A stretch of 64,000 nt of DNA, taken from an uncultured Methylomirabilota bacterium. GTDB taxonomy: Bacteria > Methylomirabilota > Methylomirabilia > Methylomirabilales > 2-02-FULL-66-22. The stretch's first letter is position 1; every line of letters starts with the position of its first letter. Positions 5,978 to 33,038 of this stretch are shown here, piece by piece. Position numbers and translations under genes: made by a program. The stretch spans positions 328,684-392,683 of the forward strand of contig CAWJHW010000004.1 of the NCBI GenBank assembly GCA_963842855.1. The letters run 5' to 3'. The notes under the pieces were generated by a model, which was given only the letters and a program-made list of their open reading frames with translations, did no database searches and had not been told where the DNA came from.

Positions 5978-7112
5978 ATGAGGGCGTTGGGTTCTCTGAC
6001 CTTCGGTGAGAACCTCTCGACGAACGGAAATTGATGCCTGTACAAGGAAAGCGCCGGCGTGCCGGGCCCACCAGTGGACGGGGGCCTCGGAAGCTGCGTG
6101 GGTGGGGAGCACGATCGCAACCGGTCTCCCTCAACCTTCATCCCTTAGATGCGGTGGTGCGTGGGACCTGGTGCATCCGGTGCGGTGTCGGTAGCCAGCC
6201 TGCTCTTGCTCGTGGCCGAAGAGGAAATGGAGCACAGGGACCAGGACCGGGAGAAAACAGGACAGCCAGGTGACTCACTGACCGCGGGGCCTGGCCCCTC
6301 GGCAAATGAACCCCTAACGACACCCGCCCACCTGGTTTCAGCTTATCACCGATGGAGGCGCAACCCCCGCCTCCAGGACCTCGCGGACCCCGCCCTTCCG
6401 GCCCCAGGGACCGAAACTGGACTGCTAGCTTGCCCCAGGTTCCCCGATCTCGGGGCACCCCTAGTCCTGGCACAGCTTCCACCAGGTCCGCCACCAGGCA
6501 TCCACCAGGACCTCGGCCACGATCGGCCGGCCATTCGCCGGCGCTGGGATGGTCGTGAACGAAGATGACCAACGAGCTGTAGAAACATCCGGCAGCGCAT
6601 TCTACGCCATGTGGCGTATGGCGATGAGGGGGTCGGGCCCGTGCGTGTATCTGGGCGTGATGGTCAGGCTTGGTCTCCACCGCCCCGAGCTACGGATGGA
6701 CGATGGCGAGCGTCACACCCCCTCTGCCGCTGCAGGCGGCGCGGGAATCTCTCGCCCGGAAGTTAGGGCGGAAGTTAGATCACGGATTATGAGGGTTCGT
6801 GCCGGGGGACCGGTCCCCTAATGGAACAGTGGATCACCTCTCCCGCCAGCCGACGTTGGAGACTCACGTTAACCGTAGCCATGTAGCGCATGGAGAGAGG
6901 GCATCCGCACCGGGGATCTGGGCTGGATGCAGGCCGGTATACGAATTGGCGGCGAAGGGTCGGAGGAGCGACTCCCAGCGACCCTGATGCCGATGGAGCG
7001 AACCACCCGATCCGCCACCGGCAGGCAATGGAAGGTGATCGGCATTGGCTAGGGTGCCGGGGGAACGGACCACCAATTGAGCAGTACGGGAATCTGGGGT
7101 TCATTCCCCAGT

Positions 7113-11423: not shown

Positions 11424-11530
11424 GCGGTCCTCCGACGTTCGGGAGGATAAGCAGAGATCAGGAGCGCTTATCGACCATTGCCGTTCCTTGGCCGGCTGTC
11501 GGTTGTCGGTTTTCCCTTGTGCAATGCGCG

Positions 11531-12112
11531 CTAGCGCGCCCGGTGCATCGTCTCCGAGCACACATCCCAGACCATGAACCGAATCGGTGGTACCTGGGCC
11601 AGCAGGAATGGGGTGGAGGACACGAGCCGCACAGGGGGCGCCCCGGTGGGAAGGGAGCCGCTCCGTTGCCCGTCACCGCTGTCGCCCGGTTCCTGATACT
11701 GGTACTGGTAGAACAGATCGAAGCGGGTCTCGCGCCCCGTCGGCCGCAGGGCCAGTTGAAAGGGGGTGGAGCCCATCATGCCGAAGATGAGGTCTCGCGC
11801 CGCCGCGCTGGTCTCGGTCACGGTAGCGCCGCGCGAGTCCACCCCCACCAAGTCGAACTCCAGGAAGCGAATGTCCGCTCCTGACCACGGGTTGAACGCC
11901 CTCCCCTCCAGCAGCAGCGTGTCGGGCGCTGGCCGCGTACAGTTCCAGAAGAGCTCCACCGCCGGGGACGACACCTCATGGGCGAACCCGGGGGGAGGGT
12001 AGGGCGTGGGGGGTGTGGTCCGCAGCGCTCGCCCCCCCTCCGCAGCGCAGGCGGCCAGGCTGACCCCCAGGAGTACCAACAACCCGGCACGAGTCAGACA
12101 GATCCCCTTCAT
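11531..12112 (-). CDS. lipoprotein of unknown function (paralog of 9630..10103)
   Basis: MKGICLTRAGLLVLLGVSLAAC is a signal peptide plus lipobox. It has the same conserved blocks as 9630..10103. Confidence 0.65.
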   Translation of the reverse strand: MKGICLTRAGLLVLLGVSLAACAAEGGRALRTTPPTPYPPPGFAHEVSSPAVELFWNCTRPAPDTLLLEGRAFNPWSGADIRFLEFDLVGVDSRGATVTETSAAARDLIFGMMGSTPFQLALRPTGRETRFDLFYQYQYQEPGDSGDGQRSGSLPTGAPPVRLVSSTPFLLAQVPPIRFMVWDVCSETMHRAR

Positions 12113-12144
12113 CTCCCACACCTCCTCCGCGGCCGCCGCTTCCC

Positions 12145-12414
12145 TCAGGTGGGCACCGTGTGTGCTGTTCTCGCAGTTCCTCGGACGGCGGGGACATGCT
12201 GATAGACCGCCAGGGCGACCCCACTGCCCAGCAGGGCCCCCGCCAGAACGTCAGAGGGAAAATGGGCCCCCAGGAGAATGCGCGACAGCCCGACCAGCGC
12301 GGCCACGCCCACGAAGCCAACCGCCTGCCGCGGATACCAGGCGGCCAGGACGACCGCGGTTGCGAAGGCCGTCGTGGCATGCCCCGAGGGGAACGACGCA
12401 TACGCAGCAGCCAA
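12145..12414 (-). pseudogene. C-terminal fragment of a PAP2-family phosphatase
   Basis: It contains PAP2 motifs PSGH and SRILLGAHFPSD but lacks the N-terminal KxxxxxxRP motif. An in-frame TGA lies just upstream of the TTG used by the track. The 5' end abuts the repeated 320 nt leader. Confidence 0.6.
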
Positions 12415-12726
12415 TCGCTCTCCTCATCGCAGCACCCCCATGAACCTCCTGGACTCGGCTCCCTCACGCAGCTGCCCAGCCTGAGGGAAACCAGGTGGAT
12501 ACACTCCAGGATACCTGGAGGCAATACCTGCGACAGAGGCAAGGCCACTTCCAAGACAAGTTACGGCCCTGGGACCCGAAATGTTTCAGGGGGGCCCCGA
12601 AGCTCGATCCTCCGTCCCATCGAAAAGATTGAGCGTGGTTCGCACGAATCCGCCTCATCCTGCCTCACCCCCTGAAATTTCACTGAGACGCACGATTGAC
12701 CGATCTCGGATCGAGTCGTTGCGGAC
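12407..12726 (-). repeat. copy 1 of ~320 nt repeated leader (second copy 50004..50322)
   Basis: It aligns by eye over its whole length with 50004..50322, with scattered substitutions and few indels. In both copies it ends in ATGAGGAGAGCGATTGGCTGC (MRRAIGC). Confidence 0.85.
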
Positions 12727-13113
12727 GAGTGCGTCCAGCGAAGGCTAGTCTGCTCAGTGGGGGATAGTTCCACCGGGGGAAGAGTCAGGACCCCCGTAGC
12801 TTGAGTTGCCTCCGTGGAGGAAACGAACCGGAGGAAGCCAACTGACCAAGCCATCCTTGTTAAAGAGGGACCCGGCCGTTTCTGCGGTGTCAAGGTAAAG
12901 TTCTCCTTGCGACGTTGAAACGCCGTGCGTTCGTATTGTTGCCCGCTCCACCGGGGTGCCCCTCCCGTTGGATGCTTCCCCGCTCCATCGTAGTGGTGTA
13001 AATGGGGGGTTGCGGCTTTAGTTGTCGCTCCTCCCGATTCCGGAGACCCACCGCAACGTGGAGAGCCTCGGCATCCATTAATCGGGCTTCACCGCCGGCG
13101 GCTCGAAAACGAG

Positions 13114-13143
13114 TTGACGGGCGAGAGTCGCCTGTTCTAAAGT
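13114..13143 (+). promoter_or_regulatory. candidate sigma70-type promoter of ilvE
   Basis: TTGACG (13114-13119), an 18 nt spacer, then TAAAGT (13138-13143), about 45 nt upstream of the ilvE ATG. Confidence 0.3.
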
Positions 13144-13187
13144 GCGTTTGTGACCATTCGTCCATCCTGACAGGAAAGGAATGTCCG

Positions 13188-14267
13188 ATGGCCAAAAGCT
13201 TCGCGCTGAGGATCACGAGAACGACCCAACCGGGGCCGCGGGTGGCGGATCCGGACCTCGGCTTCGGTCGGGTGTTCACAGACCACATGCTGGTCATGGA
13301 CTACGCGCCGGGGACCGGCTGGCACGATGCCCGGATCGAGCCCTACGGCCCGCTGACCCTGGACCCGGCATGCCTGGTCCTGCATTACGGCCAGGCGGTC
13401 TTCGACGGGTTCAAGGCCTTCCGATCCAGCGAGGGTGGCGTGGTCCTGTTCCGCCCGACGGACCACATCGCGCGCCTGAACGCCTCCAGCGCCCGCCTGT
13501 GCATCCCGCTGGTGGACGAAGCGTTCGTCCTGGATGCGCTGAAACAATTGATCCGCCTGGATGCCGATTGGGTGCCGCGGACGTTCGGCTGTTCGCTGTA
13601 CATCCGGCCCGTCGTCATCGCGACAGAGGCAGGCCTGGGCGTTCGCCCGTCCAAGACCTACCGGTTCTATACCATCCTGTCCCCGGTGGGCGCCTACTAC
13701 AAGGAGGGCTTCCAGCCGGTCCGGATCCTGGTCTCGGACAAGTACGTCCGGGCGGTGCGCGGCGGACTGGGCGCGGCCAAGACGCCGGCCAACTATGCCG
13801 CCAGCCTCCTGGCGGCGGAAGAGGCCAAGGCGGCCGGGTTCACCCAGGTCCTGTGGCTGGACGGGAGGCAGCGGACGTACGTCGAGGAAGTCGGCACGAT
13901 GAATATCTTCTTCCGGGTGGGAAACAGGCTGGTTACGCCGCCGCTCGAGGGGACCATCCTCGCCGGCATCACGCGGGACTGCGTGATCCGGCTGGCCGCC
14001 CATTGGGGCATCCAGATGGAGGAGCGGCGGATCTCCATGCCGGAAGTGCTGGCGGCCCACGAGGCGGGAGGACTCCTGGAGATCTTCGGATCGGGGACGG
14101 CCGCCGTCATCTCTCCGGTGTCGGAACTCGTGTTCCAGGGAAGGTCCCTGATCATCAACCAGGGCCGGATCGGGGACTGGACGCAAAGGCTGTTCGAGAC
14201 ACTGACCGGCATCCAGTACGGGAAAATGGAGGACCCGTTCGGCTGGACGGTGCCGGTATCGCCCTGA
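13188..14267 (+). CDS. ilvE: branched-chain amino acid aminotransferase (class IV)
   Basis: Begins MAKSFALRI... at ATG 13188. Family-typical blocks are GFGRVFTDHM, YGQAVFDGFKAFR, RGGLGAAKTPANYAASL and GTMNIFFRVGNRLVTPPLEGTILAGITR. Confidence 0.9.
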   Translation: MAKSFALRITRTTQPGPRVADPDLGFGRVFTDHMLVMDYAPGTGWHDARIEPYGPLTLDPACLVLHYGQAVFDGFKAFRSSEGGVVLFRPTDHIARLNASSARLCIPLVDEAFVLDALKQLIRLDADWVPRTFGCSLYIRPVVIATEAGLGVRPSKTYRFYTILSPVGAYYKEGFQPVRILVSDKYVRAVRGGLGAAKTPANYAASLLAAEEAKAAGFTQVLWLDGRQRTYVEEVGTMNIFFRVGNRLVTPPLEGTILAGITRDCVIRLAAHWGIQMEERRISMPEVLAAHEAGGLLEIFGSGTAAVISPVSELVFQGRSLIINQGRIGDWTQRLFETLTGIQYGKMEDPFGWTVPVSP

Positions 14268-14333
14268 GGTCTCAGGCCCTGTAGGGAGGATGAGGGGGAG
14301 CCTTCGCATGAATGGGGGAAAGGAGGCAATGCA

Positions 14334-14537
14334 ATGAAAGCAGTGCTCGGGTGGTGTTCGCACGGGAGTTTTGCGCTCTCCGGTCTGTGCTTTATTCTGG
14401 CGATCCTGGCCAAGCTGGGACCGGGCGAGATCGCCGGGCTCTCGCCCCGTACGCTCTATGCCGTGGCGTTGATTCTGGGCATCTACAGCATCGCCTTCTC
14501 GATGTGCGGGGTTCGCAGCCAGGCCAGTGGAGGCTAG
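14334..14537 (+). CDS. small membrane protein (67 aa)
   Basis: AAGGAGG SD before the ATG. There are two hydrophobic segments (FALSGLCFILAILA and LYAVALILGIYSIAF). Confidence 0.4.
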   Translation: MKAVLGWCSHGSFALSGLCFILAILAKLGPGEIAGLSPRTLYAVALILGIYSIAFSMCGVRSQASGG

Positions 14538-14686
14538 GCCTGGAGGGAACCCGCCAGAAGAGACCAGGTAGACGTTCGGTGGGGAGGGACTCCGACTGTG
14601 CAGCCGGGGGCGCGCGGAAGTTTGAACGTTTCGGGCGCTCAGGACCTGCCGATTTCGGGCGCGAATCCCAAGGAGGACTCTTTCGA

Positions 14687-15124
14687 ATGACCATGCCTCG
14701 TCGACTCCAAACCGCGCTGACCATGGTGGTGTTGAGCGTCCTCGTCGCGCCCACCGCAGGCTGCGGCCTCTTCTCGCGATCCAAGGAGAAGCCTCCCGAG
14801 GTGTCACAACCTTCCACGCCACCGCTCCCGGCTGCGACTCCCGCGCCGCCGCCTCCGCCGCGCCGACCATCCGGTGCCCGGATTGCTGATGAGGAGAAGC
14901 TGAAGAATCTGATCCAGGGCAAAACCACCAAGGAGGAGGTGCGGGGACTCTTCGGCATCCCGCAGGAGATCGTGCTGGCTCCAGAGATCGAGACTTTCAT
15001 CTACTATCGCGAGACGTCCTCCGGCTGGATCTCCCGGACGACCGAGCGCGTCGAGACGCTCGCGATTCGCTTCGATGCCAAGGGCGTCCTGAAGGACTTC
15101 GAATACCGGTATTCCGGGCGATAG
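14687..15124 (+). CDS. lipoprotein with SmpA/OmlA (BamE-like) domain
   Basis: ATG 14687 after AAGGAGGA. MTMPRRLQTALTMVVLSVLVAPTAGC carries a lipobox and is followed by a Pro-rich linker. LIQGKTTKEEVRGLFGIPQEIV...FIYY fits the BamE-like pattern. Confidence 0.55.
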   Translation: MTMPRRLQTALTMVVLSVLVAPTAGCGLFSRSKEKPPEVSQPSTPPLPAATPAPPPPPRRPSGARIADEEKLKNLIQGKTTKEEVRGLFGIPQEIVLAPEIETFIYYRETSSGWISRTTERVETLAIRFDAKGVLKDFEYRYSGR

Positions 15125-15212
15125 AGTTTGCGGCAACGTGTGTGAATGGCAAGGCCCGGCGCTTGCGCCGGGCCTTGGCGTTTCAGGGGGACTCGCGTTC
15201 TCCCGCGCGAGG

Positions 15213-16145
15213 CTAGCGGCTCCAACCTTCCGGCCAGTTCACCAGGATCATCCCGCCAGTCACCAGCCCGGCGCCGCTCAGGAGCTTCGCCGTGAGGGGC
15301 TCGTGGAGCAGCAGGCCGCCCAGCAGAACGCCGAAGACGGGCGTGAAGAACGTAAAGCCGGAAAGGTTGCTGACCGGATAGACCTGGATGAGCCAGAACC
15401 AGACCAGGTAGCTGGCGAAGGCCACGATGATTCCCTGGTAGGCAAGAGAGGTGACCACCAGGGGGTCGAGGCCCCGGATCCATCGCGGCTCGAGGAATAA
15501 AGCCATGAAGGAAAGTTGCAGCGCCGAGACGCCGAGCTGGTAGAAAAGCATCTGGGACGGCGTCATGCTGGACCGGACGACCCGCTTGAGGTAGAGCGAG
15601 GTTGCCGCCCAGAGCAGGCCGGCCGTCATGCTCATCAGATCGCCCGCGATCTGTAGCCGGGTGGGCCGCCCGAGGCTGTCCCAGAGCGTGATGATGACGC
15701 CGGCAAAGGCCAGGATCAGACCGGCGAGCTTGCGCCCGGTGAGCGGCTCGTTCGGCAAAAGCCAGTGGGCCCCCAGCGCCACGAAGAACGGGGCCGTGTA
15801 GAGGAAGATCACGGCGTGAGAGGCGGTGGTGTAACTCAGGCCGAGGTAGATGAACAAGAACTCCGTCCCGAAGAGGAGTCCGATCGCCAGGCCGTGGAGG
15901 AAGGTCCGATCCCGATGGACGAGGGGGAGGGCGCGAACCCGGGCCCAGAGCGCGACGAGCAGGGCCGCCACGAGGGATCGCACCGCCGCCTGAAAGATGG
16001 GGCTCACACCGCGGTTCGCCACCTTGATGGAGACCTGTCCCATGCCCCAGAGGAAACACAGGGTCACGACGATGGCCATGGCCCGGCCATCCAGGCTCTT
16101 CTTGGAAAGGCTCACGCATGTGCCCCCTGAGCAAACGGGTGCCAC
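15213..16145 (-). CDS. DMT-superfamily (EamA/RhaT-type) transporter
   Basis: About 10 hydrophobic segments and a duplicated EamA-like architecture. The start is uncertain (16145 or the internal ATG near 16079). Confidence 0.75.
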   Translation of the reverse strand: MAPVCSGGTCVSLSKKSLDGRAMAIVVTLCFLWGMGQVSIKVANRGVSPIFQAAVRSLVAALLVALWARVRALPLVHRDRTFLHGLAIGLLFGTEFLFIYLGLSYTTASHAVIFLYTAPFFVALGAHWLLPNEPLTGRKLAGLILAFAGVIITLWDSLGRPTRLQIAGDLMSMTAGLLWAATSLYLKRVVRSSMTPSQMLFYQLGVSALQLSFMALFLEPRWIRGLDPLVVTSLAYQGIIVAFASYLVWFWLIQVYPVSNLSGFTFFTPVFGVLLGGLLLHEPLTAKLLSGAGLVTGGMILVNWPEGWSR

Positions 16146-16698
16146 TATACCCCGAGCGGCGACCAGAGTGAAGCGCCTGCTAACTCCAAGCCAAAACTAT
16201 CGACCGCCAAGTGGTCATGAACCGTGAACGGTCACCATGACGCATGAAAATTCGCCCGGGCTCCCCGGCACGCCCCTCCGGGAGCCGGTCCGCGACGGAG
16301 CCCCGCCGCACCCATAAAGGGCCCGGCGGGGCAGGGCCGGCTCCCGCGGGTCGGGGCCGAGGGGCTCGGCCCCTCCGTGCCGCGTCAGACCCACCTGCGG
16401 TGGGTACCACCCACCGCACGGCCCGGCTCTCCGGGAGGCACCGGGGAGCCCCTGGAACCGTCCGGGCATTTTCTTCGCAGGTGCCAAGGCCAAACGGATC
16501 ATTTGGGAGGAAACGAGCGGAACTTCTGAAGACCCTATGGACGCGTTTTCGCGTCATCCGGTGGAGAGATCGGAACATCCCATCTTTGGCGGCCTTGGCG
16601 TCATGGCGGTTCAAGGTTTTTCTCGGTGCCGGACTTCGGACTTGATCCTACGGATGGCTCCTGGTAAAAGGGGGTATAGAGAGATCACGGAGGCGGCC

Positions 16699-17229: not shown

Positions 17230-20200
17230 ATGGCTGTGAGCGCAGGCGTTGACATCGGTGCCGTGAGCGTGAAGGCGGCGATCCTCGGGGACCCGGAGGA
17301 TCGCGACGAGCTGGATCGCCTGGCCGCCGACGGAGAATTCGCCTGGATCCCGGCGCCCCGGCCGCTCTTGGTCTCCCGCTATCGCCGATCGTTGGGGGAT
17401 CCACTGGGCACGGCCGAGGCGATGGTGGCCGCCATCCAGAAGCACGTTCGCGACGTCCGCTGGGACCGCATCCGCGTCACGGGACGGGGCGCGACGTTGC
17501 TGCAGGAGCGCTGGTCGCTCGACCGGGTGAACGAGTTCAAGGCCATTGCGGCGGCGGCGGGATTCCTCCACCCCGAGGTGGCCACCCTCTTCGAGATGGG
17601 CGGAGAATCATCCAAGTTCCTGCGGCTGGCGCCCGATCCTTCCTCTGGGCGGGGCATCCTGGACTACGAGACCAACGGGGACTGCGCCGCCGGGACCGGC
17701 TCCTTCATCGACCAGCAGGCGACCCGCCTGCGCTACGACGTCGAGGATGTCGGCGCCATTGCCTGCTCCGCGCCCTCGGCCGCCCGGGTCGCCGGCCGCT
17801 GCTCGGTCTTCGCCAAGTCCGACATGATCCACGCCCAGCAGAAGGGGTACACCCCGCCCCAGATCCTGCGCGGCCTATGCGACGCTGTGGCCCGGAACTT
17901 CAAGGGGAGCATCACCAAGGGCAAGCCGGCCGTGCCCCCCGTCGCCTTCATCGGCGGCCTGGCCAAGAACGCCGGAGTGGTTCAGGCCCTTCGAGAGCTT
18001 TTCCATTTCGAGGATGGGCAGCTCTTCGTCCCCGAGGCGTACGCCTGGTTCAGCGCCATCGGGGCGGCGCTGCTGGTGGCCGAGTCCCCGGACCAACCGG
18101 GCAAGCAAGTTGGCAGCTCTCCAAACACGCCTCTGACTTCCTTGCCGAAGGATTCGGGCGGCGACGGAGCCACGACCCGACCCCTGAGCCTTGAAAACGT
18201 CCTCCTGCTCCGGGATCGGGTCCAACCTGCCTGGCGGCCGGGGGCAGGGGCAGGAGAACCGGCCTATCTGGGGATCGATGTCGGCTCGGTCAGCACGAAC
18301 CTGGCTGTCCTGAACGATGCGGCCGAAGTCCTGCACGAAATCTACGTGCGGACCGAGGGCCGCCCCATCGAGGTGGTGAGCGCCGGCCTCCGGACGATCG
18401 CCGGGGCATTAGGGGATCGCATCCGGATCCGCGGGGTGGGCACGACGGGATCGGGCCGGGAGCTGATCGGCGAGCTGGTGGGTGCCGACACGATCAACGA
18501 CGAGATCACGGCCCACAAGACCGGCGCCATGTACGTGAGCCAGACGCTCCTCCGCGAGCCGGTGGACACGATCTTCGAGATCGGCGGCCAGGACTCCAAG
18601 TTCATCGCCATCGAGAACGGCATCGTCGTGGACTTCGCCATGAACGAGGCCTGCGCCGCCGGGACCGGCTCGTTCCTGGAGGAGCAGGCCGAGCGCCTGG
18701 GGATCTCCATCAAGGAGGAGTTCGCCCGGCTGGCCTTCCGGTCGCGCCACCCCGTCCGGCTGGGCGAGCGCTGTACGGTCTTCATGGAGCAGGACGTCAA
18801 CGCCTGGCAGCAGCGGGGTGCCGCGCGGGAGGACCTGGTGGCCGGCCTGGCCTACTCGGTGGCACTCAATTACCTGAACCGCGTGGTGCGTGGGCGGTGG
18901 ATCGGGCGGGTGATCTACTTCCAGGGCGGCACGGCGTATAACGACGCCGTGGCCGCGGCCTTCGCCGGCCTCTTGGGCACGCGCATCATCGTGCCGCCCT
19001 ACAACGGGGTCATCGGGGCCATCGGCATGGCTCTCCTGGCTCGGGACAAGGTGCGGGGCACGGGACGCCCCACGACGTTCCGCGGCTCCGACCTCAGCGC
19101 CGTGCGGTTCTCCCTGCGCGAGTTTACGTGCCGGGCCTGCTCCAACGTCTGCGACATGCAAGAGTTCACGGTCGAAGGGGTCAAGACCTACTGGGGGGAT
19201 AAGTGCAGCGACAAGTTCCGCAAGCGGTCGCGGACGGAGCGCCGGCCGGTGATTCCCGATCTCATGACCCTGCGGCGCCGGCGCCTGCTGGACGGGTATG
19301 ACGGTCCGAAAGGATCGGGGCCGTGCATCGGGATCCCCCAGGCGATGTTCTTCCACGATCGGTTCCCCTTCTGGCGCGCCTTGCTGGAAGAGCTGGGGTG
19401 CGCCGTGGTCCTCTCCGACGAAACGAACCGGAAAATCGCCCAGGACGGCGTGGACCTCACCGTGGCGGAGCCCTGCTACCCGATCCGGATGGCGCATGGG
19501 CACGTGCAGGATCTCCTGGACAAGGGGGTGGAGTGGATCCTCCTTCCCAACACGATCAACGCCGAGGCCACGCCCGACGCCCTCGAGTCCCACGTGTGCC
19601 CGTGGGCCCAGACCCTCCCCTTCGTGGTGCGAAGCGTGCCGCGCCTCACCGCGGTGCGGGAGCGCATTCTGGCCCCCACGGTGCACTTCCGCCTGGGCGA
19701 GCGTCATGTCGCGGAGGAGCTCTTGCCGCTCGGGCGGGCGCTCAAGGCCGGCCGGGTCCGGACGCTCCGGGCGGTGGCCAAAGGATTTGCCGCGCAGCAG
19801 GCCTTCCGGGCTGCCGTGGAGGCGGCGGGCCGGGAGGCCCTGGCTACCATCCAGGCCAGCGGGGAGCCCGCGATCGTCCTCGTGGGCCGTCCTTACAACG
19901 TGCACGACCGCGCCGTCAACCTGGACGTCCCTGGGAAACTCCGAGATTACTACGGAATCAACGTCCTCCCCATGGACTGCCTGCCCCTCCACGGCGAGGA
20001 CATCCGGGATGTCAACGACAACATGTACTGGCATTCGGGGCGACGCATCCTGGCGGCAGGGAAGCTGGCGGCCCCCCATCCAAACCTGCACCTCATCTAC
20101 GTCACGAACTTCAAGTGCGGTCCCGATTCCTACCTCAAGCACTTCCTGGGGGACGCCTGCGGGAGGCCCTTCCTCAGCCTCCAGTTCGACGGCCACAGCA

Positions 20201-30288: not shown

Positions 30289-30783
30289 GGAGTACTCCCC
30301 TCAGCGGCAAATGATCAGGGCGCGATGCCCTCAGAGGCATGTATTCCTCCGACACATGGAGCGCCCGGTCATATCAGGGACCGGCAAGGTCCGTTCCCCG
30401 TGGCCGCAAACGTTGGCGTGCCCGCCAGTCGCCAGTCCCCCACACCAAACGGGGCTCAGGAAATACGCTCGCGGATATGGTCAGCCCTCCGACCACAGCA
30501 CGCTCTTCCTTGGACTTCCCCACCCTACATCTGGGTTCAACGGCCCAAGGCTCCCCCACCCTGAGCGAGAGTCCCGAAGGACCCAACGAGGCTGGCGTCG
30601 CAACGGCATTCCGGGACTGCAAGGCCACCAGAGACACCCACGACGTGCATGGCGCTAAGTATGGCTAGCCGTCCCAGGCTACCGGAAGTGGCCGGCGGCC
30701 CCGGGGACGCGGGCATGACACCGCGCGGCCCAACGCAAGAAATTTGAAGCCTTTACCAAACGATCGGAGCGAGTTGGGGAACG

Positions 30784-31188
30784 TCAGATCGCGCGGGCAG
30801 GGGTACTAGGCGGCTCATCGCCTGGTGCAGGTGAGGGGAGGGAGGCGCGGTGTATGTCCACGCGGGCACGGATCCTCGTGAGCCGTTCACAAGAGATGGC
30901 TGGAACGGCGACCGGACAGCGAGAAAAACCCGTGCAAGACTGTTGAAGGACTACCAGGGCGTGCAGGTGGCCCAGGGCCTCCTGGACCGCAAATGCCCCG
31001 TGACGCATGATCCCCTCCGCCTCAGCCACGGTGGGCTGCGAGGGGATGGGGGGCTGGAAGATGCGCTTGTACAAGTCGGAGCCGTCGAGATCGAGCACCT
31101 CGAAGACCATGAAGACCCCGACGGCTGCAAGTGAAATTAGAACTACCACCCACCAGGCCGGGGATCTCGAGGGAAGCAGCCGCCTCAT
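30784..31188 (-). CDS. hypothetical membrane-anchored protein (134 aa)
   Basis: N-terminal TM AWWVVVLISLAAVGVFMVF. No domain recognised. Confidence 0.35.
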   Translation of the reverse strand: MRRLLPSRSPAWWVVVLISLAAVGVFMVFEVLDLDGSDLYKRIFQPPIPSQPTVAEAEGIMRHGAFAVQEALGHLHALVVLQQSCTGFSRCPVAVPAISCERLTRIRARVDIHRASLPSPAPGDEPPSTPARAI

Positions 31189-31294
31189 TCCACGCCTCTT
31201 GAACGCCCTTGTCGGGTCAATGCCGTGGATCTCGGGAGCTGAGGTAAATATACCACACGCCTTCGACCACCCACCACCGGCCTAGCCGCCTGTG

Positions 31295-31940
31295 ATGCCG
31301 AGTAGCCCCGGGGACTTTCACCCCGAGGCCCTCACAGATCCGTACGTGACTGTCTCCAGTCATACGGCTCGTGCCACTCATCGAAGGCTGCCGCCTTCTG
31401 CCGATCCCGGCGAGCTCCTCCCGTTACCGGTTGGCCCGGGGGAATCGGTGGAGTGACCTGCCCCCTTCGCTCCCCAGGCGTTACCCTGGTTCAACGCTAC
31501 TCCGGGGCAGTCCGCCCCTTGCCAGCGCATCGGTACTTTCGGCCTCGCGGGTCCGCCGCTTGGGCCTTTTCCCTTGGCATCACCGGCAAGGTTCTCACGT
31601 TCCATACAGGAGCCCAGATTGGGGTCACGCCACCTATACACCGGACACCACATGGCCAGTAACCAGGTTCCCGCCATGCTGCTCCCAGACCGAGGGTGCG
31701 AGTCTGGTTTTGATGTCGTCTAAAGGCTTTCGATGCGTCAGCAGTGGTTCGCTTGCGCTCGTCTCCCCAACCCCCACCTGACATGATCACCGTCACGCCT
31801 TTTCCCCTGACGCTCACCACCACAGCTTTTGGCTGCAGCAGCTCAGGGTGGTTTGGAGCCTCTGCCTGTACAGCGGCTCCGAAGGGCCCTCCTTCATCTC
31901 CTGTACAGCAGGCACCCCATGGTGCGTCGTGACGCAACAC
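31295..31940 (-). mobile_element. group II intron ribozyme, apparently ORF-less (about 650 nt)
   Basis: Canonical domain V lies at 31337..31370. Domain VI follows as GAG-GGCC-TCGGGG [TGAAAGT] CCCCGG-GGCT-A-CTC, with a bulged branch-point A 8 nt before a terminal AT (3' end at 31295). No reverse-transcriptase ORF lies between the 5' region and DV. The 5' boundary is uncertain because no exact GUGYG was found (GUGUUG lies at 31940). Confidence 0.7.
31337..31370 (-). ncRNA. group II intron domain V
   Basis: The minus strand reads GAGCCGTAT-GACTG-GAGA-CAGTC-ACGTACGGATC. This gives the AGC triad, a 2-nt bulge context, a GNRA-like loop, and the 34 nt length of the DV consensus. Confidence 0.85.
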
Positions 31941-32252
31941 CCCCGGGCCTCCTGGCCGGTACCCCTTCGTAGACTATAATACGCGACTACCCCCAGTTGT
32001 GTTTCAGAGGATGGAGAAGATTCTGTGGACGGCGGAGGAGCATCAGATCGGGCGGCCGCTGGTTTCCTCTGGATCCAGCTCCTAAGGTGGATAATTCGCG
32101 TCGACCGGCGCCCCCGTCCCGAAACGCTCCCATGAGCCGCGAGCGCCGGAGTACGAGCACCATCGGTCGCGCCGCGTCAGTCCTTCCGCACTGCGACATC
32201 GGGACGGCTCATTCCGGGCTGGCCATGGGCACCGTCAGCATGGATACGCGCG

Positions 32253-32474
32253 TCAGTATCGACATGTTTCACCCGTGGTCCGGAACGCTTCGATACGATG
32301 CCTTCCTCGACCATGCTCTTCGCAAGGAAGCAAGCGACAACGCGAGAACGGACGGTGCCATTGCGGATCACGGCTCCCCCATAGCCACCCGAGGCTGACG
32401 ATCACCGCAGCAATCAGCACGCCGGTCGAAGACGGCTCATTCAGAATCATGGAAAGCTGGACGCTATTCATCAT
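32253..32474 (-). CDS. small hypothetical protein, hydrophobic N-terminus
   Basis: GGGAGGA SD before ATGATG, 12 nt after the upstream stop. The N-terminus is VLIAAVIVSLGWLWG. The C-terminal half is Arg-rich and may be out of frame. Confidence 0.3.
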   Translation of the reverse strand: MMNSVQLSMILNEPSSTGVLIAAVIVSLGWLWGSRDPQWHRPFSRCRLLPCEEHGRGRHRIEAFRTTGETCRY

Positions 32475-32486
32475 TCCTCCCCATCG

Positions 32487-33038
32487 CTAGTCATCGTCCG
32501 CCCGCGGGAGGAGTCCGCGTCCCACGTCGACCTTCAGCGTCCCTACCGCGCGGTCCTCGAACAGGAGGGAGACACCCCAGGCCTGTCCCTGTTCCATGGA
32601 CCACGCCCAGTCCCTGATCTCCAATTGGTGAAGGGCGCAGTCTACGGCCGGCCGGAGCCCCGTGAGATCCCGCACGTCGCCTCCCGCTGTGGGGGGCTCC
32701 TCCCCGGCCAGGAATCGCCCGGTTCCAGGATCCACTCGGAGATGGGCCACGACCCGCTCGTCGTCCAGGAGTTCGGCTTGAACCCACGGGCGTCCAAACC
32801 ACTTGGGGGGGGGACGGTCAGCCGACCGAGGCTCCACTAGGCCCGGCGCTCCCTGGCCGGGTGCAGGGCCTCGGTGGAGGTCGCCCCAAGTAGGCTCTCC
32901 GCCGCCTGGGCGAGGGCGCCACCACAGAGGAAGAATGCGGTCAAGACTGGAAGAAGTCGGGAGCCCATGACCCCGAGAAGATACTCGGGGATACCTGAAG
33001 GAATCCTGAAGCCCCGATGAATTCTTCTTCAGAATCAA
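32487..33038 (-). CDS. hypothetical protein (183 aa)
   Basis: Complete ORF. The C-terminal ~100 aa are non-repetitive (WVQAELLDDERVVAHLRVDPGTGRF...). Start uncertain. No domain recognised. Confidence 0.3.
   Translation of the reverse strand: MILKKNSSGLQDSFRYPRVSSRGHGLPTSSSLDRILPLWWRPRPGGGEPTWGDLHRGPAPGQGAPGLVEPRSADRPPPKWFGRPWVQAELLDDERVVAHLRVDPGTGRFLAGEEPPTAGGDVRDLTGLRPAVDCALHQLEIRDWAWSMEQGQAWGVSLLFEDRAVGTLKVDVGRGLLPRADDD

Follow-up and report, generated by a model that had tools for sequence, protein, structure and literature searches.

Introns without an open reading frame (ORF) have been stated to be rare and short-lived among bacterial group II introns (PMC4424553, PMC3245105). Those of Thermosynechococcus elongatus owe their mobility to proteins acting in trans and are often located at the start codons of reverse transcriptases (RTs; PMC2882425), and in class D introns, which prefer a lagging-strand template, the protein of RmInt1 acts in trans (PMC4615759). 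Here, we examine an ORF-less intron in a stretch of 64,000 nucleotides, henceforth termed the window, from contig CAWJHW010000004.1 (assembly GCA_963842855.1) of an uncultured Methylomirabilota bacterium. An original prediction made from the sequence had placed a group II intron at 31295-31940. We find that the element is an intact, complete group II intron comprising all six domains and not a relic, and that it sits at a site that ten related contigs carry empty. Most probably, it is a non-autonomous class D/IIB3 (RmInt1-like) intron that is spliced and mobilised by a protein made elsewhere. It is thus an ORF-less member of an already described kind and reveals no new kind of element.

An intact group II intron with exact ends

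A scan of the whole window against Rfam at the gathering threshold gave three matches. On the minus strand of the predicted region, RF00029 covers domains V and VI (31372..31297; 52.9 bits, gathering score 40), and RF01999 (group-II-D1D4-2) covers the core of domain I (31895..31776; full model 1-118, 117.5 bits, E 1e-23, gathering score 36). A permissive Rfam scan of 30500..32800 returned no further relevant match. The intron region is also more stably folded than its shuffles (z = -4.5). The original prediction had identified a domain V at 31370..31337 on the minus strand, which reads exactly as quoted there, and had seen room upstream of it for domains I-IV. With both models on one strand and domains I-III modelled with covariation, its assignment to the ORF-less group II introns holds, and the upstream room is occupied by domains I-IV. 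The 5'-truncated relic that it had offered as an alternative is refuted by domains I-III upstream, by the complete set of six domains, and by flanks that match the exon-binding sites (EBS) of the intron.

The limits of the element were fixed by contigs that lack it. Related contigs were found through a MacB-like protein encoded 2.9 kb from the intron and comprise many peat-metagenome contigs and one metagenome-assembled genome (MAG) from NCBI (GCA_050011115.1), whose contig JBEKJS010000026.1 carries the same locus. In ten contigs with long flanks (L132-L141, from peat metagenomes and including the NCBI MAG), megablast showed that exactly 31937..31297 is absent, with flanks 99.4% identical to those of the window upstream and 99.8-100% downstream. 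The empty junction reads ...GGCCCGGGGGTG/ATCACAGG... or, in longer form, ...AGGAGGCCCGGGGGTG/ATCACAGGCGG... (GGGGGTG/ATCACAGG), and the ligated-exon junction expected from splicing is predicted to be GGGGGUG/AUCACAGG. The intron hence spans 641 nt on the minus strand, from a 5' UUGCG to a 3' ...CUACUCGGC, which ends in GGC. These limits are exact because the terminal bases are not repeated across the empty-site junction, and the same ends are given by head-to-tail copies in loci L096, L118 and L090.

The predicted ends at 31940 (GUGUUG) and 31295 (AU) were therefore 3 nt and 2 nt too wide, and are ruled out by the empty sites together with the family alignment and an alignment to the ORF-containing relative L007. 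The same three lines of evidence rule out a 5' end at GUGCC (31915), which had been suggested by a single-sequence fold. Of the predicted domain VI, the bulged A stands (31303), whereas its 8-nt spacing and terminal AT do not, the real spacing being 6 nt. A small hairpin before the closing helix of domain I had also suggested a class C-like intron targeting a terminator hairpin. This hairpin is an intron-internal, variable insertion, and class C group II introns are without EBS2 and EBS3, both of which are present here.

One filled and ten empty alleles

An exact 27-mer from the 5' region of the intron led to a second copy, found on four peat metagenome contigs that represent one locus. This copy differs from that of the window at 2 of 641 nt (G218A and U414C; 99.7% identity), the former lying 2 nt after the window EBS2 in the same stretch. 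The flanks of the second locus are unrelated to those of the window, apart from 15 IBS-like nt that precede the intron (GGUGGCCAGGGGGUG versus GGAGGCCCGGGGGUG) and the first two nucleotides of the 3' exon. We take the insertion to be real because a misassembly would have to join sequences over 15 nt plus 2 nt of similarity and would leave the two differences unexplained. In our reading it is a recent insertion, into a non-coding spot matching the exon-binding sites of the intron. With one filled and ten empty alleles of a single site, the locus offers a natural case in which a fresh insertion is supported by direct population evidence.

Gene calls and contig ends had raised the idea that the intron is present in the related contigs and breaks their assemblies, which the megablast comparison rejected, all ten being without the intron. 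Five independently assembled contigs (L136-L140) end at a common point at ~30806, about 490 nt downstream of the empty site, which could mark a strain break or a repeat.

Covarying structure and target recognition

A consensus structure calculated with RNAalifold for the window copy and 30 ORF-less relatives (31 sequences) contains all six domains, DI to DVI, in order (Table 1). It comprises 29 helices and 164 pairs, 113 of them with compensatory changes. Paired cells make up 96.3% in the observed alignment, compared with 79.3% after shuffling and 35-46% when partners are slid, and the covariation score is 0.570, compared with 0.232 and about 0.1, respectively; the observed values were reached by none of 500 shuffles. 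In the window copy, every consensus helix is intact. Compensatory changes occur in 8 of 11 pairs of the DI closing helix (helix 1, A2 columns 66-77 with 388-399), at 7 of 7 pairs of the domain IV basal helix and at six pairs of the domain VI helix (helix 29), while the domain V helix (helix 28) is 99.4% paired.

EBS1 was located by scanning domain I of each of 38 introns for complementarity to its own 5' exon. The resulting column forms a mean of 5.45 pairs with the last 6 exon nucleotides, against a background of about 3.3, and almost all relatives show it covarying with their own 5' exon, as in L114 (CCCCUCU/AGAGGGG) and L021 (UUUGAUU/AAUCAAA). In the window, EBS1 and the intron-binding site IBS1 form 7 of 7 core pairs and up to 9 contiguous ones. 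The relatives repeatedly have a 6-mer complementary to the 5' exon at the position of EBS2, some 30 nt upstream of EBS1. An earlier candidate for EBS1, a variable loop (CCCCAAUCU) close to the 3' end of DI, showed no complementarity, and the covariation scan pointed to intron positions 240-246 instead. All three exon-binding sites pair with the window's own flanks, the interactions by which the original prediction had proposed to examine the element, and each of the three pairings covaries among the relatives. Exon recognition is of the IIB type, and the pairings show that the copies arrived by reverse splicing.

Table 1. Positions of intron features and of the exon sequences they recognise (coordinates of the window).
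Feature	Position	Strand	Description
IBS2, 5' exon	31947..31952 (-15 to -10)	minus	GGAGGC; 6/6 pairs with EBS2, two of them G-U
IBS1, 5' exon	31938..31946	minus	CCGGGGGUG, (CC)GGGGGUG; core is the last 7 nt
5' end and small variable hairpin	29 nt preceding domain I	minus	Hairpin is a variable insertion
Domain I	31602..31908	minus	Closing helix CUGUACAGGAG / CUCCUGUAUGG, from 31908/31602 inward
DIa, DIb, DIc	31776..31895	minus	RF01999 match
EBS2	31722..31727 (intron 211-216)	minus	GCCUUU; about 30 nt upstream of EBS1
EBS1	31690..31698 (intron 240-248)	minus	CACCCUC(GG), in loop of hairpin 31707..31685
EBS3	31636 (U302)	minus	Column Watson-Crick complementary to first 3'-exon nucleotide in 33/38 introns
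Domain II	31514..31594	minus	RNAalifold helices 18-20, compensatory changes
Domain III	31458..31510	minus	RNAalifold helices 21-23; basal helix with 99% of cells paired
Domain IV	31373..31457	minus	85 nt without ORF; 7-bp basal helix, DIVa, short variable second hairpin
DIVa hairpin	31437..31412	minus	CCAACCGGUAACGGGAGGAG; CCAACC..GGGAGGA, conserved with covariation; Shine-Dalgarno-like remnant
Domain V	31337..31370	minus	GAGCCGUAUGACUGGAGACAGUCACGUACGGAUC (GAGCCGTATGACTGGAGACAGTCACGTACGGATC); 34 nt, AGC triad, 2-nt bulge; RF00029
Domain VI	31300..31333	minus	Bulged branch-point A at 31303, 6 nt from 3' end; RF00029 alignment
First 3'-exon nucleotide	31296	minus	A; pairs with EBS3 U302

Proposed assignment to class D

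By sequence homology, we file the ribozyme RNA as bacterial class D-like (IIB3, RmInt1-like). Sh.dy.I1, a curated intron that Table S1 of Toro and Martinez-Abarca (PMC3552965) assigns to class D, matches RF01999 with 90 bits, and its protein is 40-46% identical to the 415-422 aa ltrA proteins of ORF-containing relatives of the window intron. A blastn search against plasmids returned 504 records, dominated by Shigella, Sinorhizobium, Serratia and Escherichia, genera with curated class D introns. Most of these matches align over domains I-III only, their domain IV being occupied by an ltrA gene for a protein of 415-422 aa (e.g., L005, L007, L008), and four align end-to-end at ~606 nt (Methylosinus, two Rhizobium leguminosarum plasmids, and Methylomonas). 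The ORF-less relative L002 (Rhizobium) ends in GCC, and RmInt1 itself ends in CC (PMC4238363).

A protein probably supplied in trans

Like the original prediction, we found no RT/maturase ORF inside the intron, and neither the internal nor the neighbouring small ORFs have a Pfam domain. The prediction had also seen no intron-encoded protein (IEP) elsewhere in the window, in agreement with a tblastn search in which three intron RTs gave no match in the 64 kb (best E 0.55); elsewhere, the same queries find RTs of other intron classes at 26-37% identity. The 134-aa ORF at 30784..31188, named as a neighbouring gene, does lie downstream of the intron, with its coding status now uncertain: it belongs to the domainless ORFs, and gene callers on related contigs choose the opposite strand.

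What is left of domain IV points to a lost protein gene. In the ORF-containing relative L007, the DIVa hairpin directly precedes the IEP start codon, and ORF-less relatives of the GUGCG type keep this start codon and about six codons (AUG..GCAAAGCCGUA), fused to the last few codons. DIVa is the main docking site of the intron protein in subgroup IIA introns where tested. Class D intron proteins are distinguished by a characteristic C-terminal extension and contain no endonuclease domain.

We propose the following scheme, in which splicing competence, the trans-acting protein with its identity, and the mode of priming are what we infer. The RT/maturase gene of domain IV would have been deleted down to an 85-nt stump with DIVa kept. 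Transcribed as part of a host transcript, the intron RNA would fold into the six-domain ribozyme, and a maturase from another intron of the genome would aid lariat excision via the bulged A at 31303. The lariat-protein particle could reverse-splice into DNA sites pairing with EBS1, EBS2 and EBS3. Because class D proteins are without an endonuclease domain, nascent lagging strands at replication forks would be the expected primers of cDNA synthesis. By default, the protein would come from a class D intron, with D1D4-4-type introns as the alternative source. The reliance on a trans-acting protein that the original prediction had voiced is supported as a reading.

The cumulative GC skew of the window has its maximum near 26-28 kb and then falls, which could reflect a change of replication direction or only of gene orientation. 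If this peak marks a terminus, the sense strand of the intron would serve as template for lagging-strand synthesis, in line with what is expected of introns that lack an endonuclease, an argument that we consider too weak to use.

Several points weigh against a non-autonomous class D intron mobilised in trans. Neither the 64-kb window nor the 6-9 kb contigs that carry the second copy yielded a candidate protein. With the class-defining protein absent, the class assignment comes from RNA homology. The polymorphism fits gain in this strain or precise loss in ten contigs, the latter of which would itself require splicing plus reverse transcription. In addition, the termini UUGCG...GC, their position fixed by the empty sites, depart from the consensus 5' GUGYG...AY 3'. 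Mutation of the penultimate base impairs the second splicing step of RmInt1 (PMC4238363), and the non-canonical window copy might splice poorly.

Covarying termini

Terminal nucleotides were counted among ORF-less copies with resolved ends. At least 20 copies, including that of the window, combine U1 (UUGYG) with a 3' GGC and hence a penultimate G, and at least 25 combine G1 (GUGYG) with GAC or GAU and a penultimate A. Three copies pair G1 with a 3' CC (penultimate C) and one pairs C1 with GGC (penultimate G). U1 with a penultimate A and G1 with a penultimate G occur in none of these copies. One nested Streptomyces copy shows an apparent U1 with AAC, but its ends are uncertain. An ORF-containing Streptomyces intron likewise has the termini UUGUG..GGC.

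A contact between the first and penultimate nucleotides is needed for the second splicing step, as PMC4238363 reports in citing Chanfreau and Jacquier (1993). Because the two positions covary in a manner that matches this known contact, the termini of the window intron appear compensated rather than decayed, which argues for a compensated variant and not a degenerate one. The switch to U1/G arose repeatedly, as seen from L042 (UUGCG..GGC), which falls within a GUGCG clade, and from the separate lineages L071/L118 and L111. L042 and L056, related ORF-less introns from different phyla with termini UUGCG..GGC and GUGCG..GAC, respectively, have the 5' flank AGACUUGUAGGUGAA in common, which suggests a conserved, perhaps mobile, target sequence. 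The four combinations G1-A, U1-G, G1-C and C1-G provide clean natural covariation for a contact that had previously been defined mainly by mutagenesis.

A widespread ORF-less family

The original prediction had called bacterial ORF-less introns uncommon, a statement that needs qualifying: 888 of the 13,041 bacterial group II introns in a survey lack an IEP (PMC8919778), and the present type alone occupies at least 119 loci. These were found by scanning a one-genome-per-species collection for the ORF-less pattern, defined as a spacing of 75-105 nt between domains III and V, and represent about ten phyla. A hidden Markov model (HMM) built from the alignment recovered at least 80 full-length copies of 589-694 nt in 77 of the at least 119 loci. 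Among the matches listed, the nearest relatives of the window copy are 77-78.5% identical to it.

By a hand count of record titles, the loci listed include about 35 from Acidobacteriota, with at least 8 copies in one MAG, about 27 from Desulfobacterota and 'delta' lineages, about 20 from Bacteroidota, 7 from Rhodothermales and relatives, and 6 each from Alphaproteobacteria and Gammaproteobacteria. A few each come from Nitrospirota/Nitrospinota, Chlorobiota, Bacillota, Chloroflexota and Latescibacterota.

Many ORF-less copies are nested within other group II introns. Some occupy domain I of class D introns that contain an ORF (L005, L070, L099, L022), others directly follow the domain V of their host (L067, L096, L045), the hosts in L067 and L096 being of the D1D4-4 type. 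Head-to-tail arrays occur in L096, L118 and L090. In the Acidobacteriaceae MAG locus L040, the ORF-less copy (6399-7048) stops 2 nt short of the ATG with which the RT gene of a D1D4-4-type host begins (7051), the same arrangement as that of TeI3 inside TeI4 in T. elongatus, and the insertion could affect translation of the host protein. L085 is grouped with L040 for this placement of a copy before an RT start.

Further composite elements were seen among the relatives. On a plasmid of Streptomyces sp. NBC_00826 (L008, 878-4871), three UUGYG-type introns are nested at the same DIc position, after ...GGCUGA; two of them encode proteins and the outermost is seemingly a 5' fragment only. The ORF-less relatives L038 (850-1700) and L047 (6474-7297), from one Acidobacteriaceae MAG, are interrupted in domain III, at HMM position 440/441, by inserts of 820-850 nt, and L014 (4775-6152) contains a 1.4 kb insert in domain I; the inserts in all three matched no Rfam family.

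The window itself holds a second intron 5' fragment, which begins with GUGCGUCCAGC at about 12729 on the plus strand and matches RF02003 (D1D4-4) at 12755-12898 with 75.9 bits. No domain V or RT was found within 11500-16500, and an ORF resembling a branched-chain aminotransferase follows the fragment at a distance of about 300-450 nt. Introns of this type host the nested copies in L040, L067 and L096, and one stands beside the ORF-less copy in L005. At 19819-19894 on the plus strand of the window, ARAGORN called a tRNA-Gly (anticodon ACC) in G+C-rich, coding-like sequence, probably a false positive.

In a neighbour-joining tree, ORF-containing introns are interspersed among ORF-less clades, and the window copy falls in an ORF-less-only clade beside a Streptomyces ORF-containing pair. 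The tree is crude, without bootstrap support and with few ORF-containing taxa. It disfavours a single origin of all ORF-less copies and suggests, as far as so weak a tree allows, that ORFs were probably lost several times and that at least one ORF-less lineage has been long-lived. A bolder interpretation strikes us as quite possible while falling somewhat short of probable: that the intron belongs to a large, uncharted non-autonomous class D lineage, an ORF-less-only clade diverged to about 65-78% identity and spread over many phyla, which has compensated U1-G termini, homes into and borrows proteins from other group II introns, and is still jumping in peat bacteria.

Alternative explanations

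The protein could belong to another class, namely the RF02003 (D1D4-4) type that hosts some of the relatives. Several associations speak for this source: the insertions into D1D4-4-type introns (L040, L067, L096), the D1D4-4 intron beside the ORF-less copy of L005, the 5' fragment at about 12729-12898 of the window, and the relaxed specificity of some T. elongatus IEPs (PMC2882425). Such co-location may, however, reflect target choice only, and both the ribozyme and the DIVa hairpin that it has kept are of class D type. Maturases are, moreover, usually specific to their own RNA class, and there are other ORF-less copies (L005, L070, L099) that have inserted into domain I of class D introns with an ORF. 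We therefore regard mobilisation by a D1D4-4 protein as unlikely and retain a class D protein acting in trans as the preferred reading.

The intron could also be immobile, splicing on its own or with the aid of host factors and passing vertically, like C.te.I1. According to reviews, retromobility has generally been lost where the IEP is missing, and C.te.I1 persists without any IEP in its genome (PMC4424553); the lack of an RT near either the window copy or the second-locus copy would fit this picture. It is difficult to reconcile, however, with a polymorphic site that has ten empty alleles, with a 99.7% identical copy at an unrelated locus with matching IBS, and with relatives that are multi-copy in single MAGs, each site matching its own EBS1. 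Taken together, these features make immobility a decidedly improbable explanation.

That the copy is a decaying relic, its U1/GC termini marking inactivity and its polymorphism arising from recombination or an assembly artefact, would fit the departure from GUGYG...AY and the failure of tblastn to find a protein partner in the 64-kb window, but is scarcely credible given that the deviation is common to at least 20 relatives and covaries, which indicates selection on the first-penultimate contact, that all helices are intact, that an artefact would need joins over only 15 nt and 2 nt, and that two bases set the window copy apart from the only other one found.

Comparison with known systems

The ORF-less TeI3 introns of T. 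elongatus resemble the window intron in that they derive from introns with an ORF, whose ends persist as remnants, and have retained DIVa (Mohr, Ghanem and Lambowitz 2010, PMC2882425). Their mobilisation by TeI4 proteins has been demonstrated (PMC2882425), whereas for the window intron we propose it by inference. TeI3 and TeI4 belong to subgroup IIB1 (PMC8643678) and to one cyanobacterial genome, whereas the window intron is class D-like, has U1...GC termini and has relatives in about ten phyla. With RmInt1 (Sr.me.I1) and class D, the window intron has in common the same DI family (via Sh.dy.I1), the IIB-type EBS1, EBS2 and EBS3, and unusual 3' ends. Head-to-tail copies, reported for class D (PMC4615759), also occur among its relatives. 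RmInt1 differs in encoding a 419-aa protein and starting with G, whereas the window intron lacks an ORF and its first base is U. The delta-ORF donors made from RmInt1 are laboratory constructs, to which the window intron is a natural equivalent.

C.te.I1 of Clostridium tetani is likewise an ORF-less bacterial intron with a non-standard 5' splice-site arrangement. It lies within a gene, undergoes alternative splicing and shares its genome with no related intron (PMC4424553), whereas the window intron is intergenic and polymorphic and has a second copy. Archaeal ORF-less introns of Methanosarcina home into the ORFs of related introns, as PMC4424553 relates from Dai and Zimmerly (2003), and nesting is also seen among relatives of the window intron, although not for the copy in the window.

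That this family of ORF-less class D introns is so broad contrasts with the view of such introns as rare and short-lived, and shows them to be commoner and more active in environmental bacteria than that view allows. Compact class D ribozymes of ~640 nt with readable EBS/IBS rules are also possible targetron scaffolds. In the literature consulted, mostly outside subscription journals, we found no account of non-autonomous ORF-less lineages or of terminal covariation. Within that scope, what seems new is the proof, at the level of a population, that the intron inserted recently, together with the wide spread of the family and the U1-G/G1-A covariation. For the termini, the closest described case is UHB.I2 of Halorhodospira halochloris (PMC7923331), whose 5'-UUGCG..GU-3' ends with a penultimate G fit the U1-G covariation. 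UHB.I2 differs in encoding a protein and in residing in an integron cassette array, and its termini were reported as an oddity and not as the covarying pair that they form in the family described here.

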